Source: a bacterium
Lineage (GTDB): Bacteria; UBA8248
Assembly: GCA_965204535.1 (NCBI GenBank)
Contig: OZ241996.1
Span: 960,001-1,024,000, forward strand
Direction: 5' to 3'
Length of the DNA: 64,000 bases
Both the position numbers and the translations under genes were made by a program. Of the stretch, positions 19,629 through 24,099 are shown one piece after another. Within the stretch, counting starts at the first letter, position 1, and each line of letters starts with the position of its first letter. Under the pieces are notes generated by a model. It made no database searches, was not told where the DNA came from, and worked only from the letters and a program-made list of their open reading frames with translations.

Positions 19629-19739
19629 GTCGGATTCTCCCGATGAACCCCCGACGACGGGACGCGGTGGCATACAATCCACGTAAGAGACCCGCGGTCC
19701 GCGCCCCGGGCCGGGAGTGACATCTTACAACATACGGGC

Positions 19740-20405
19740 GGTGAGGGGTCAAACGCCAGCGAGAAGCGAGCGTTTGACGCGATTGAGGAAACCAACCCCT
19801 CTCGCTCTCTCTCGCCTTGAAAAGCAACCCCCCCTCGTCAGGGGACAAAGGCAACCCCCCCTACCCCCCCTTGTCAGGGGGGTAAAAAAGGCCGACGCCC
19901 CGGCAAGTGGAGGATATGAAAAAAGCCGACGCCCGCCGCCGGGCCAGGGGTTTTGATTTTTCTTACCCCCCTGTCAAGGGGGGGTAGGGGGGGTTGCCTT
20001 TATACCTGACAATGGGGGGAGTGAATTCCCGAACGACAAGGCTCCCGTAGGGGCGGCCCCCTGTGGCCGCCCGTATCGAAGATGTCTGCGCCCGCGGCCG
20101 CCCCACATCAGGACAGGCACGGGGGCCACGGACAGGCACGGGGGCCTGTCCCTACGGTGAACAATTCGATGATCGGGATTCCTTCCCCACCGGAGGGTTT
20201 TTCAACAGCCCCCTCAAGGGGGGAGTGATTCCCGAACGACAAGGCTCCCGTAGGGGCGGCCCCCTGTGGCCGCCCGTATCGAAGATGTCTGCGCCCGCGG
20301 CCGCCCCGCATCAGGACAGGCACGGGGGCCTGTCCCTACGGAGCCCCGAAACGCTCCCTCCCCAATCGCGTCAAACGCTCATTCATCAATCGGGTTTGAC
20401 CCGCA
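19740..20405. repeat. Repeat mosaic: C-rich inverted pair, duplicated REP doublets, TCAAACGC..GTTTGAC hairpins
   Basis: Inverted pair about 19851-19996; near-duplicate units starting about 20015 and 20220; hairpins at 19748 and 20371. Confidence 0.8.
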
Positions 20406-20484
20406 ATCCCCGATGCTTCATAATCGAACCATATCCGAACCGCCCGGCGCGCAGCGCAAGTTGCCCGCAAGTTGAAATAAAGGG

Positions 20485-20514
20485 TTGACAAAAGCGGAAA
20501 ACTTGCCGCACTAT
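20485..20514 (+). promoter_or_regulatory. Putative sigma70 promoter for the lipoprotein transcript
   Basis: TTGACA-N18-CACTAT preceded by an A-rich tract. Confidence 0.45.
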
Positions 20515-20690
20515 CATGGAAGTCAAGGAATACGCGAGAGTAGTCGCCTTCAGGGCCGCCCGCTCGAAGCAACGCGGATTTCTCCCGGAAGACGGAGCGG
20601 GCGGAAGCCCACGGGAGGAGCCTGCTCTCACGAATCGCCTGACAGCCCGGAAGACGACGACCCAGAAGGTTCCGGGCGCTTGCAGCAGAC

Positions 20691-21234
20691 ATCACGAGGC
20701 CAGAGGACTCAACCCACGGCGAACCACGCCACCCATCCCCTCCAGTCTCGTGAACGGCAAGGCCCGGCGGCCCGCGCAGCAGGCGGCGCTCAGGCCGGGA
20801 ACGGCAAGCCCGGCGAAAGCCGGAAGACGGAATATCACGAGGCCAGAGGACTCAACTCATGATGCGCCACGCCGCAAATCCCTCTCCAGTCTCGTGAACG
20901 ATTCAGGGCAAGGCCCGGCGCGAGCCTGAAACGAAAAATTCGGCTCGGGGCCAGGAAGTTTTTTATCGCGAGGCTGGAGGACTCAAACATCATGAATCCT
21001 GACCAGAATCCCACACCAGTCTCGTGGATAAGCCGGCCACCGGCCCGGGCGCGTGAGTCCGGGTCGGCGGCCGCGCGCTCCGGCCCCGGTTCGATGAAAC
21101 GATGAAACGATAGAAGCCCGAAAACGAAGGATAAGGAAAGTCGGAAAGTCAAAGAAAGGAGGTCGAATCCGAACACTTCAAAGTTTTGTTGGTTGCAAAG
21201 CTCTTTAATATCACGAGACTAGGAGGACTCAAAA
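20691..21234 (+). repeat. Array of four ATCRCGAG..GAGGACTCAA motifs; the first three are each followed by a complementary CCAGTCTCGTG
   Basis: Copies at 20691, 20834, 20965, 21210; anti-motifs at 20742, 20886, 21016; copy 4 is the RBS of the lipoprotein gene. Confidence 0.85.
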
Positions 21235-21237
21235 GTG

Positions 21238-22848
21238 ATGAAACTCACCAGCAACAAAATCTTTTCATTCATGCTGGCGGCGGCCTTCGCGCTGACGCTG
21301 GCCGGCTGCGGCGGCGGTGGCGGCAGCACTACGCAAACGCCGACCGATATGCCCGACCCGCAAGCGGCATGTGAAGCCGATGGCGGCGAATACAGGGACG
21401 GGACTTGCGTCACGGCCGCAGAACTGACGGCGGAGCGCATGGCTTCGCAGCGCATGGCCATCGACACGGCGATCGATGCGGCCGAAACCGCGGTTGCCGG
21501 GATCGACGACGATTCCACGGATTCGGAAGTCACCGCCGCCAACATGGCGGTCGCGGCTGCCCGGACGGCGATCTCGGATGCGGCCGATCTTCCGCAGGCC
21601 GAGAAGGACGCGAACACCGGAACGGTCGACGCGATTGCCAACCGGCTCTCTGCCGCCCTGGAAAGCCGCATGGCCGCCATGGACGATGAGCAGAAGGCCG
21701 CGGATGCGGCCATGATGGCGACGGCCCTGAAGCTGCACGCGGGCCTCGAGCACGGCCTTGGCGATACCGACAACGTCCGAACCGGCGCAAGTGACGCCGA
21801 CGGCGTCATCAGCGTGACTATCGGCACGGCCAACGCCGTCCCACTGGCGGAAGACAAGGATACGACGGTCGCCGCCAACCACGGCTGGACAGGCAAGAGG
21901 CACACGGCCGAGCCCACGGGTGATGTCGGCACGTACGAGGCGTATGTCTACTCGAACGTCGGCACCGGGACGGAGGGCGACCCGTTCAATGAAGAGTACA
22001 CGCTGAACGCAGACGGCGAAACAGGGGATATCACTGCCCTCGCTGGCTATGTTACGGGCCGCGTCGCCAGCCCGAACTTCGACCAGTCCGCCGGCAGCAA
22101 ACTATTCAAGTTGCCGACCAATGCGGTCCGGGTGCTGGTTGCCGGCAGCTATCACGGGGTGTCGGGCACCTATTACTGCACCCCCACCAGCGGTGAGACG
22201 TGCTCCGCTACCATAGCCGTAAGCGGTTTCACGCTTGCGGGCGGGACCTGGTCGTTCAAGCCCACCACCGCGACGGCCAGGGTCACGACCGTGGCGGACA
22301 CGATTTATGCTTCCTACGGCTGGTGGCTCCACAAGTCCGAGGACGGCAACACCTTCACCGCGAGCGCTTTCGCGACGGCCAGGGGCACCGTCCCGGCCGC
22401 CACGGGCATCGATACCCTGCGTGGAACGGCGACATACATGGGCGGCGCCGCCGGCAAGTACGCGCTCCACAGCGCCACCGGGGGGACGAACGACGCCGGC
22501 CACTTCACCGCGCGGGCGACGCTCGAAGCCGATTTCAACGCCGACATGATCACGGGCACCATCGACCAGTTCATGGGCGCGGACGGTGAGTCTCGGAACT
22601 GGTCCGTCGAGTTGAAGAAGTCCGGCGTCGGCGCTGGCGGGGCCATTACCGGTAGCGACGGCACCGGCGATCCGATGCAGACGGTCTGGACCATCGACGG
22701 GACGGCCGCGGCCGCCGCCGGCCAGTGGTCCGGTACTCTCTACGACAACGGCGACGACGGCGTTCCGAAGGTCGGGACCGGCACGTTCCATTCGACGTAC
22801 AGCACGTCCGGCAGGATGGTCGGCGCGTTCGGCGTGGACAAGCAGTAG
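21238..22848 (+). CDS. Surface lipoprotein with Ala-rich helical stalk and C-terminal TbpB/fHbp-like beta-barrel
   Basis: Lipobox LAGC followed by GGGGG; AGGAGG RBS; GTATYMG, LEADF, ITGTI, GQWSG, MVGAFG at the C-terminus. Confidence 0.78.
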   Translation: MKLTSNKIFSFMLAAAFALTLAGCGGGGGSTTQTPTDMPDPQAACEADGGEYRDGTCVTAAELTAERMASQRMAIDTAIDAAETAVAGIDDDSTDSEVTAANMAVAAARTAISDAADLPQAEKDANTGTVDAIANRLSAALESRMAAMDDEQKAADAAMMATALKLHAGLEHGLGDTDNVRTGASDADGVISVTIGTANAVPLAEDKDTTVAANHGWTGKRHTAEPTGDVGTYEAYVYSNVGTGTEGDPFNEEYTLNADGETGDITALAGYVTGRVASPNFDQSAGSKLFKLPTNAVRVLVAGSYHGVSGTYYCTPTSGETCSATIAVSGFTLAGGTWSFKPTTATARVTTVADTIYASYGWWLHKSEDGNTFTASAFATARGTVPAATGIDTLRGTATYMGGAAGKYALHSATGGTNDAGHFTARATLEADFNADMITGTIDQFMGADGESRNWSVELKKSGVGAGGAITGSDGTGDPMQTVWTIDGTAAAAAGQWSGTLYDNGDDGVPKVGTGTFHSTYSTSGRMVGAFGVDKQ

Positions 22849-22863
22849 CAGCGAAGAGCACGA

Positions 22864-22905
22864 CGCCTCAGGCTTCCGGGGCTTCACGGCCCCGGGGCCG
22901 GGGCG
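22864..22905 (+). terminator. GC-rich hairpin after the lipoprotein gene (no U-tract)
   Basis: CGCCTCAGGCTTCCGGGGC-TTCACG-GCCCCGGGGCCGGGGCG. Confidence 0.45.
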
Positions 22906-23070
22906 TGTGTCTGATAAGCAAGTCGGAAACAGGAAAGGGCAGGTTGCCGGGAAGGAGCGAGTGACCTTTGGGGGTTACTCATTGGTTGCTCTACATCGTC
23001 GGGAGCAAATTGTACCGGCCCATTCTACAGAGTTTGAGTCCTCTCGGTGTGGGACGGGAACAATGAGTAA

Positions 23071-23276
23071 CCCCCAGCCACTGCCGGCTCGTATGGGAGG
23101 GGAACAATTCAAACGCTCGTTCATCAATCGCGTTTGACCCCCAACCACTGCTATCGTATGGGAGGGGAACAAATCAAACGCTCATTCACCAATCGCGTTT
23201 GACCCCCAGCCACTGCTATCGTGTGGGAGGGGACAAATCAAACGCTCATTCACCAATCGCGTTTGACCCCCAGCCA
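23071..23276. repeat. Three tandem 64-67 bp repeats, each with a TCAAACGC/GCGTTTGA hairpin
   Basis: Units 23071-23137, 23138-23202, 23203-23266 plus a partial copy. Confidence 0.9.
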
Positions 23277-23330
23277 TTCCTATAGCTGGTTTCCCGGCGT
23301 TTGGCAACCCCAGGCAGGACGGATTCGAAG

Positions 23331-23502: not shown

Positions 23503-24099
23503 CTACGCCCGGTTTGCCGGGTTGTATTCATCGAGCGCCCATTTCAATGGGTTGTTCCGGATGTATTCCCGGATGCGGTTCAGATCGTCATCGCCCCGGA
23601 TGACGCGGTCGTAGAACGATCGTTGCCATAGTTTCTTGTCAAACGGTTTCCATTCACCATCCTTGACGTTCGCCATGTATCTATGGGTCGTCAAGGATTT
23701 GAACCGATGCACAATGTCGGATAACGACATCGTAGGGACAACCCCCCGTGGTTGTCCCACCCCCCGTGGTTGTCCCGCCCCCCGTGGTTGCCCTGCATCA
23801 GGACAGGCACGGGGGCCTGTCCCTACGGTTCCGCGGGGAAATTCGTTTCCCGTAATAACGATGACGCCGTGGACGTGATTGGGCATGACCTGAAATTGAT
23901 CCGTCTCGACACCGCGATAGAATTCCGGCAATTCATTCCAGGTTCTTTCCACCATCCGCCCCGCCTCGCTCAAAACTATCTCACCGCCGATGATTTCACC
24001 GAACAATTCTTCTCTGCTTTGCGCGCAAATCGTCACGAAATAACACCCATCTTCTGAATAATCGCATCCCTCCAACCTGTTCGCCTTCCTGTCTTTCAT
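23503..24099 (-). CDS. REP-associated tyrosine (HUH/Y1) transposase, RAYT
   Basis: DYS..GCYFVTIC, VMPNHVHGV (HUH), FKSLTT, LWQRSFYDRVIR, YIRNNP; flanked by GTAG REPs. Confidence 0.92.
   Translation of the reverse strand: MKDRKANRLEGCDYSEDGCYFVTICAQSREELFGEIIGGEIVLSEAGRMVERTWNELPEFYRGVETDQFQVMPNHVHGVIVITGNEFPRGTVGTGPRACPDAGQPRGAGQPRGVGQPRGVVPTMSLSDIVHRFKSLTTHRYMANVKDGEWKPFDKKLWQRSFYDRVIRGDDDLNRIREYIRNNPLKWALDEYNPANRA

Follow-up and report, generated by a model that had tools for sequence, protein, structure and literature searches.

In a 64,000-nt stretch of contig OZ241996.1 (the window, whose positions serve as coordinates; C1 and C2 are contigs of this genome, G000), a surface lipoprotein gene is preceded by a long leader that carries three upstream copies of the gene's ribosome-binding site (RBS), or decoys (A1 to A3), each followed by an anti-RBS (B1 to B3). 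This array is a conserved, undescribed RNA leader, and it makes up half of a predicted RNA system with address codes that links phase-variable surface lipoproteins. Its counterpart, E3, is a ~105-nt element forming a three-way junction that ends each of 13 invertible paralog loci. Base complementarity makes it very likely that E3 pairs in trans with the decoys or the RBS. On balance, we also favor the view that the array would act as a multi-site RNA antenna, in a relay silencing this backup lipoprotein, whose promoter is fixed, upon transcription of a sister locus, although the sign of the regulation is less certain than the pairing. The features of the locus are the following.

20485..20514, + strand: sigma70-type promoter candidate, fixed (non-invertible), TTGACA-N18-CACTAT; in 12/12 orthologous leaders, mean column identity 0.90
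20553..20604, + strand: GC hairpin module at the 5′ end, similar on visual inspection to one in other leaders of G000
20691..20712, + strand: decoy RBS A1, without an ATG in this genome
20737..20753, + strand: anti-RBS B1; duplex energies -22.0 kcal/mol on A1 and -27.4 kcal/mol on the real RBS
20834..20855, + strand: decoy RBS A2
20859..20897, + strand: 12-codon mini-open reading frame (mini-ORF), stop codon in B2
20881..20897, + strand: anti-RBS B2
20965..20986, + strand: decoy RBS A3
20992..21105, + strand: 37-codon mini-ORF through B3; the last units of 11 genomes share this frame
21011..21027, + strand: anti-RBS B3, with a less stable duplex on the real RBS (-19.4 kcal/mol)
21154..21163, + strand: perfect Shine-Dalgarno (SD) sequence without a start codon, GAAAGGAGGT, 82-89 nt 5′ of the ATG; in paralog leaders too
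21210..21232, + strand: real RBS, core TCACGAGACTAGGAGGACTCAAA identical in 12/12 genomes
21235..22848, + strand: surface lipoprotein gene; lipobox, helical stalk, handle and barrel of the TbpB/fHbp/NHBA type
22872..22898, + strand: GC hairpin past the stop codon, common to paralogs
22970..23075, + strand: E3 of class C, loop 2 CATCGTCG at 22994-23001 and loop 3 GAGTTTGAGTCCTC at 23030-23043; predicted to pass the signal on to the gene that follows in the chain

The array had been noticed in an original prediction made from the letters alone, and its anatomy is as described there. The three RBS copies start at 20691, 20834 and 20965 and the real RBS at 21210, the anti-sites have a CCAGTCTCGTG core at 20742, 20886 and 21016, and the units are spaced by 143 and 131 nt. 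B1 and B2 are exactly complementary to TCACGAGACT at 21211, the mini-ORFs MMRHAANPSPVS (ending within B2) and MNPDQNPTPVSW... (37 amino acids) are present, and the promoter candidate lies where it was placed; a consensus scan demanding 4/6 matches in the -10 box does not list it for that reason. In the 4.56 Mb of the genome, both strands included, the decoy pattern with at most one mismatch occurs at 4 sites, all of them here, and exact CCAGTCTCGTG at 5 sites, 3 of which are in this leader. The confinement of the pattern and the rarity of the core show that the array is not due to chance. The leader as a whole folds with a z score of -4.7 relative to 20 shuffles.

In a DNA search of 40 relatives, 11 further genomes of the same genus matched the leader over a single long stretch, giving 12 with this one, and TTGACA-N18-CA(C/T)TAT is found in all 12 orthologous leaders. 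The leader is single-copy and comprises two to four units, 38 in total. Mean column identity reaches 0.84-0.96 in the A and B sites and 0.98 in the real RBS, compared with 0.64-0.68 in the first two spacers. At gathering score, Rfam holds no family for the leader, the E3 classes or the related leaders, in agreement with the earlier statement that no named riboswitch or CRISPR repeat is recognizable. The proposal of an undescribed, conserved cis-regulatory RNA was thus supported. The accompanying suggestion that the anti-sites silence paralogs found no support, as the paralog RBSs have no TCACGAG.

The units share several properties that bear on their function. An ATG is located 8-14 nt past the SD in 31 of the 38, and in 29 of them it is in the mini-ORF frame; 18 of these frames stop inside the anti-site, and 11, all in last units, read through it. 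According to duplex energies, 29/38 units have an anti-site that pairs more stably with the real RBS than with the decoy of the same unit, which supports the idea, already part of the original prediction, that an opened decoy may free an anti-RBS. Position 8 is a G in 38/38 decoys versus an A in 12/12 real RBS sites. The ACUCAA sequence 3′ of the SD, outside the stem of the decoy hairpin and in its loop, is nevertheless conserved, with unpaired values of 0.54-1.0 in the first units by local folding, and loop 3 of E3 presents its pairing partner. The toehold position is A in 28 units, G in 6 and T in 4.

An alignment of 26 E3 copies gave 30 base pairs, 9 of them changed on both sides, with 98% of the cells paired as opposed to 34-57% in slid controls. 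Loop 3, GAGUUUGAGUCCUC, is invariant among the 26 copies and complements GAGGACUCAA. Loop 2 defines classes. In class T, which is present in 14 copies in this genome, loop 2 is CCUCGUGA and complements UCACGAGG, the first half of each decoy, such that UCACGAGG and GAGGACUCAA make up the two halves of every decoy. Class C, with CAUCGUCG as loop 2, has a single copy in this genome, behind the gene under study, and it occupies the same place in 10/10 relatives read and in one metagenome contig. As the E3 of this locus is always of class C, the locus never addresses itself by loop 2. Class G (loop 2 CCUCGUGGAG, loop 3 GAGUUGGGUCCUC) belongs to a single-copy locus that has its own promoter and no intact gene, in 16/16 loci fetched. 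The preservation of E3 without an intact gene is as expected of a trans-acting RNA. In this genome the class-G locus (C2:2470.1-2470.7k) consists of a promoter, a long hairpin leader and one to three E3 domains, and it is possibly a master regulatory RNA. Lipoprotein remnants are found at the locus in genomes G004 and G006.

A covariance model detected E3 in 18 of 61 genomes, namely, 17 of this genus plus one diverged copy in another family. All 12 genomes with the array have E3 elements of both class T and class G, and the six genomes of the genus without E3 also lacked the leader and the protein in these searches. The metagenome matches follow a lipoprotein stop codon in all 14 cases. The diverged copy (G030:C3:221865-221980; loop 3 GAGATTGAGTCCTC) similarly lies 3′ of a lipoprotein gene; none of 12 GAGGACTCAA sites in three genomes qualified as its target. 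Inspection of 450 nt downstream of lipoprotein loci in three other lineages revealed no E3.

At the 13 paralog loci that end with E3, the gene is preceded by a segment of 188-199 bp that inverted repeats flank and that contains TTGACA-N17-TATATT. In the assembly, this promoter points away from the gene (OFF) at 12 loci and toward it (ON) at one, C2:567.4k. At 11 of the 12 loci tested, the two arms of the repeat share the same 6-nt core, of which there are 10 versions, and 8 genes for tyrosine recombinases adjoin such elements. Judged by their sequence, the segments appear to have the anatomy of invertible promoters served by tyrosine recombinases, both orientations being represented across paralogous loci. 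A strand-switch joint (6871/7023) occurs in one run, on a contig that differs at 11 other letters and may represent the sister cassette. The circle closure of contig C1 falls exactly inside the inverted repeat of an invertible promoter, and it is either a recombination product or an assembly break. In G013 and G020, paralogs without an invertible promoter have a cis anti-RBS, GAGTCCTC, ~50 nt 5′ of the RBS.

The pairing energies of the loops, computed for isolated loops, differ by class and by start site. For class-T loop 2, duplexes amount to -13.3 kcal/mol with the decoys, -10.8 with the real RBS, -7.5 with the RBS of a lipoprotein gene that we place in tier 4 (see below), and -1.0 with paralog RBSs. 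For class C the corresponding values are -4.2, -3.3, -13.6 and -3.1. Among 9,445 candidate starts, complementarity of at least 7 nt to class-T loop 2 together with at least 9 nt to loop 3 singled out only the two adjacent starts of the gene under study. For class C, the tier-4 gene ranked first, with one other site passing. The sequence that class C complements, CGACGAUG, lies just 5′ of the SD of this single-copy gene, which is located beside the Slam exporter gene and has no E3; it was found at one locus in 13 of 23 genomes of the genus, and the reversed control in none. The region of this gene, which forms the lowest tier (C2:792.3-796.2k), also contains a duplicated start region and a frameshifted pseudo N-terminus that is kept in 12 genomes. 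Loop 3 of class G still pairs with GAGGACUCAA by means of one wobble; GGACCCAAC was rejected as the main target of this class because it is present in only 3 of 23 genomes. By its sequence, E3 thus combines a location in the 3′ untranslated region (UTR) with a conserved, predicted unpaired seed complementary to the RBS of another mRNA.

Another lipoprotein locus with a fixed promoter (C2:1231.1-1231.9k, minus strand), single-copy in 12 genomes, has a switch-like leader in which two TGCGACAC...AGG sites are accompanied by a sequence complementary to them, GATTGTGTCGCA, and by an anti-RBS, TCCTCCTGAAT. GATTGTGTCGCA is also found 3′ of E3 at 13/13 invertible loci and not at the locus of the array. 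This second fixed locus is likely to constitute a second tier.

Regulation might proceed as follows. On the nascent leader, each decoy would pair with its own anti-site, or ribosomes translating the decoy would cover the anti-site, and the real RBS would be left open. E3 RNA from the ON paralog or from the gene-less class-G locus would then kiss the exposed ACUCAA loop and take over the decoy; the freed anti-site would pair with the real RBS, to which E3 might also bind directly. That CCUCGUGA reads the G of the decoys and the anti-site the A of the real RBS is an asymmetry that suits such a relay. Any single docked unit would suffice, as in an OR-gate, and additional units would increase sensitivity. 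The class-C E3 of this gene, with its other address, would in turn silence the lower-ranked lipoprotein gene beside the Slam exporter gene, with a ranked, largely one-at-a-time display of surface proteins as the outcome.

Several observations weigh against this scheme. Equilibrium folding pairs an anti-site with the real RBS in 12/12 leaders (RBS unpaired, 0.07-0.26), implying that the gene can be ON only by way of a kinetic trap or of cover by ribosomes, and blocking the decoys lowers the unpaired value of the RBS no further than to 0.07-0.17; values of 0.40-0.51 are obtained when the anti-sites are blocked and of 0.20-0.51 in span-limited folding. Seven of the 38 units have no ATG, and two have it out of frame. 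The duplex energies do not describe the double kissing complex, and the E3 covariation, observed among close-kin genomes, largely tracks the split between classes, so that few events underlie inflated counts. The E3 of the sole ON locus carries a wobble variant of loop 2. Class G, from its fixed promoter, fits decoys A1 and A2 as well as class T or better (-13.0, up to -23.5 kcal/mol). The ON paralog as the only input is therefore too simple, and silencing would be constant unless class G is gated by its own hairpin leader. Three genomes (G013, G020 and G022) combine the array with class-T E3 and show no match to the invertible segment. Two others, G004 and G006, keep E3 without intact genes or a leader in these searches, indicating that E3 can linger without a known target. 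Lastly, silencing that destroys the mRNA would remove its class-C tail as well and turn the lower gene on, which would break a strict chain.

Other explanations were weighed against the same data. It is unlikely that E3 represses only at the real RBS and that the upstream units soak it up, possibly as processed leader RNA, in which case more units would mean less silencing rather than more. Such titration would be consistent with the tier-4 leader, where an upstream RBS copy has no visible anti-site, with the preference of class-T loop 2 for the decoys over the real RBS by ~2.5 kcal/mol, and with the start-less SD, which could mark a processing point. However, a sponge has no need of the anti-site, which is nevertheless present in 38/38 units and would be freed upon binding, and RNase J was not found with PF17770. 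A positive role of E3 seems a shade less probable again: decoy pairing would guide cleavage or hold a fold that removes the anti-sites, and the gene would be OFF until E3, for instance, of class G, is made. The closed RBS at equilibrium in 12/12 genomes, its opening to 0.20-0.46 upon trimming at the start-less SD, and the better fit of class G to the decoys than to the real RBS agree with activation, but loop 3 makes 11 contiguous pairs across the SD of the real RBS, the address of the tier-4 gene falls right on the SD of that gene, and no nuclease signature was found.

We regard as improbable a purely cis-acting device, in which the mini-ORFs are translated in attenuator-like fashion or the 5′ end of the mRNA pairs with its own tail, and the address match reflects shared ancestry. 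Loop 3 does match the RBS of nearly all family members, this gene included, the mini-ORF frame is kept in 29/38 units, and pairing between 5′ and 3′ UTRs over an SD is known for icaR (PMC3868564). Against this, loop 2 never matches its own locus and in both classes matches another one, and E3 survives without a gene. Quite improbable, and the least credible of these alternatives, is a role of the motifs as DNA, as sites or guides for the recombination that swaps the coding body at this expression locus. The number of units does vary from 2 to 4, and the bodies at the locus are scattered over the tree (11 changes for 12 rows; shuffled mean, 10.6). Nonetheless, neither the N-terminus nor the E3 class of the locus is exchanged, which places the crossovers in the shared signal-peptide and post-stop sequences, off the motifs; the paralogs have their own RBS and promoter; and the two loops are antisense to one and the same strand, that of the mRNA, with a prevalence of wobble-tolerant changes such as those at the toehold position. 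The earlier alternative of recombination sites or scars was not supported. Two related candidates were discarded on inspection or by anatomy: integron attC sites, as there is no matching GTTRRRY partner, and a CRISPR-like array, as the spacers are conserved GC hairpins and the units RBS copies.

The lipoprotein gave no match in a Pfam search. Its structure model (predicted local distance difference test score, 80) resembles TbpB, fHbp, NHBA and HpuA in Foldseek, with E values of 5e-6 to 1e-4 and 11-20% identity. The sole Slam gene of the genome (PF04575) is at C2:795287. With a lipobox, a modeled handle-and-barrel fold and this exporter gene, the protein is predicted to be exported in a Slam-dependent manner. 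It has 845 homologs at E ≤ 0.001 and ~20 paralogs in this genome. The coding body at the locus is swapped among paralogs, between species. The locus retains its own N-terminus, and the 12 proteins that have it need 11 label changes on a tree of C-terminal regions, no better than after shuffling (mean, 10.6); the tree contains 44 of 59 proteins, without 9 rows that are second in an operon and 6 that are unclassified. The original prediction had considered a variable lipoprotein cassette, which holds for the coding body and not for the array itself. Antigenic variation of the vls, vsp or pilS type relies on an expression site and silent cassettes, donor copies without a promoter and a start. The fixed locus with a body replaced from paralogs, here between species, is reminiscent of such systems; promoterless, startless donors are not found, since the paralogs have a promoter, an RBS and an ATG. 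A silent-cassette model was rejected because the paralogs are complete genes.

We know of no natural array of decoy-RBS and anti-RBS units read by the tails of paralogs. FljA acts on the fliC mRNA leader. In the Hin/fljBA/fliC system of Salmonella, an invertible promoter switches on a surface protein along with a repressor of the default one; PMC9368917 has FljA act at the promoter. That system uses a protein and has two states, whereas the present one has an RNA tail and as many as 13 loci that can be switched. In the capsule hierarchy of Bacteroides fragilis (PMC11685472), promoters are invertible at all loci except the constitutive PSC locus, and non-cognate loci are inhibited by UpxZ. The likeness to the present case lies in many invertible loci plus a non-invertible locus and, as predicted here, in a ranked order and a product that inhibits non-cognate loci and not itself. 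The difference is that a protein binding a NusG paralog acts in elongation there, and loop-addressed RNA-RNA pairing over RBSs is predicted here. At the loci read, the lipoprotein gene directly follows the promoter element, with no upxY or upxZ as first genes, a reading of gene order that did not include a search for the NusG-paralog family. Since no such regulator gene heads the loci, the system belongs neither to the UpxY/UpxZ nor to the FljA type.

At the RNA level, the 3′ UTR of icaR in Staphylococcus aureus is complementary to the SD region and pairs in cis (PMC3868564). icaR has one motif acting in cis, in contrast with E3, which has two loops and an address to another gene. Pairing with an RBS in trans, loop-initiated binding and displacement of a hairpin arm are known from small RNAs derived from 3′ UTRs, two-site antisense RNAs and synthetic toehold or strand-displacement repressors, and the proposed action of E3 has these features in common with 3′ UTR-derived small RNAs and toehold repressors. 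A search for Hfq (PF17209) found none in this 95.7% complete genome. Attenuators of the erm/cat type are translational and depend on a leader peptide; a mini-ORF overlapping an anti-RBS occurs here as well. The conserved residues of the mini-ORFs (P-S/P-P-V-S) are dictated by the anti-SD bases, and the ATG is missing from 7/38 units. The STAB-SD of cry3A, a perfect SD that lacks a start codon and precedes the RBS, requires RNase J (PMC4113751). The likeness is that such a motif is present here too, 5′ of the RBS of a protein that is presumably abundant; as RNase J was not found with PF17770, the parallel is incomplete. Slam-dependent (type 11 secretion system) lipoproteins such as TbpB, fHbp, NHBA and HpuA have the same fold, to which a helical stalk, ~20 paralogs and control by RNA and inversion are added here. 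The literature searched, with subscription papers and supplements outside it, contains no account of this system, and a term search of PMC11868660 gave no match. The predicted logic is analogous to that of protein-based hierarchies.

The surroundings of the locus and other parts of the genome present further features. A carbamate-kinase-like gene (PF00696) lies 5′ of the leader in 11/12 genomes; in the window, its start region (19670-19685, minus strand) is perfectly complementary, over 16 nt, to the 5′ arm of that class-G leader, and similar sequence is found in three recombinase cassettes (C2:379460, 1585723 and 2393051). Palindromes like repetitive extragenic palindromes are plentiful, with short AAACGCTC...GTTTGACCCC repeats, in the intergenic regions 19800-20400 and 23080-23280, and an IS200-like Y1 transposase gene (PF01797) is at 23503-24099. 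A decoy-like site, ATCACGAGGCTATAGGACCCAAC, at C2:1628609 (minus strand), present in 3/23 genomes, precedes genes that resemble zorA/zorB. A family of long hairpins with a constant GGGYYGCCCGCTGAATACAA-like core and variable complementary arms has members at C1:178809, 1182424, 1184320 and 1155757 and at C2:880515, 1318234, 2778846 and 2894958; those tested had no Rfam match. The 23 runs that match the stretch include sponge metagenomes and no RNA run, contig depth is uneven and does not rank the parts, and the genus with the array is sponge-associated.

Taken further than the relay itself, the data can tentatively be assembled into a protein-free RNA logic network in a sponge symbiont, an extension that we hold somewhat short of even. 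Two-loop addresses in 3′ tails and strand-displacement leaders would connect three or four tiers (the invertible paralogs, the second fixed locus, the locus of the array and the Slam-linked locus), with a gene-less master RNA, and would bring about a display resembling allelic exclusion. The display of one variant with a fallback among flipping promoters has so far been explained by proteins, UpxZ and FljA. If the proposal is true, RNA tails with exchangeable address loops do that job, and natural leaders use toehold strand-displacement arrays like those of synthetic biology. It would also provide the first regulatory handle on a large, unannotated family of TbpB-fold proteins of sponge microbes.

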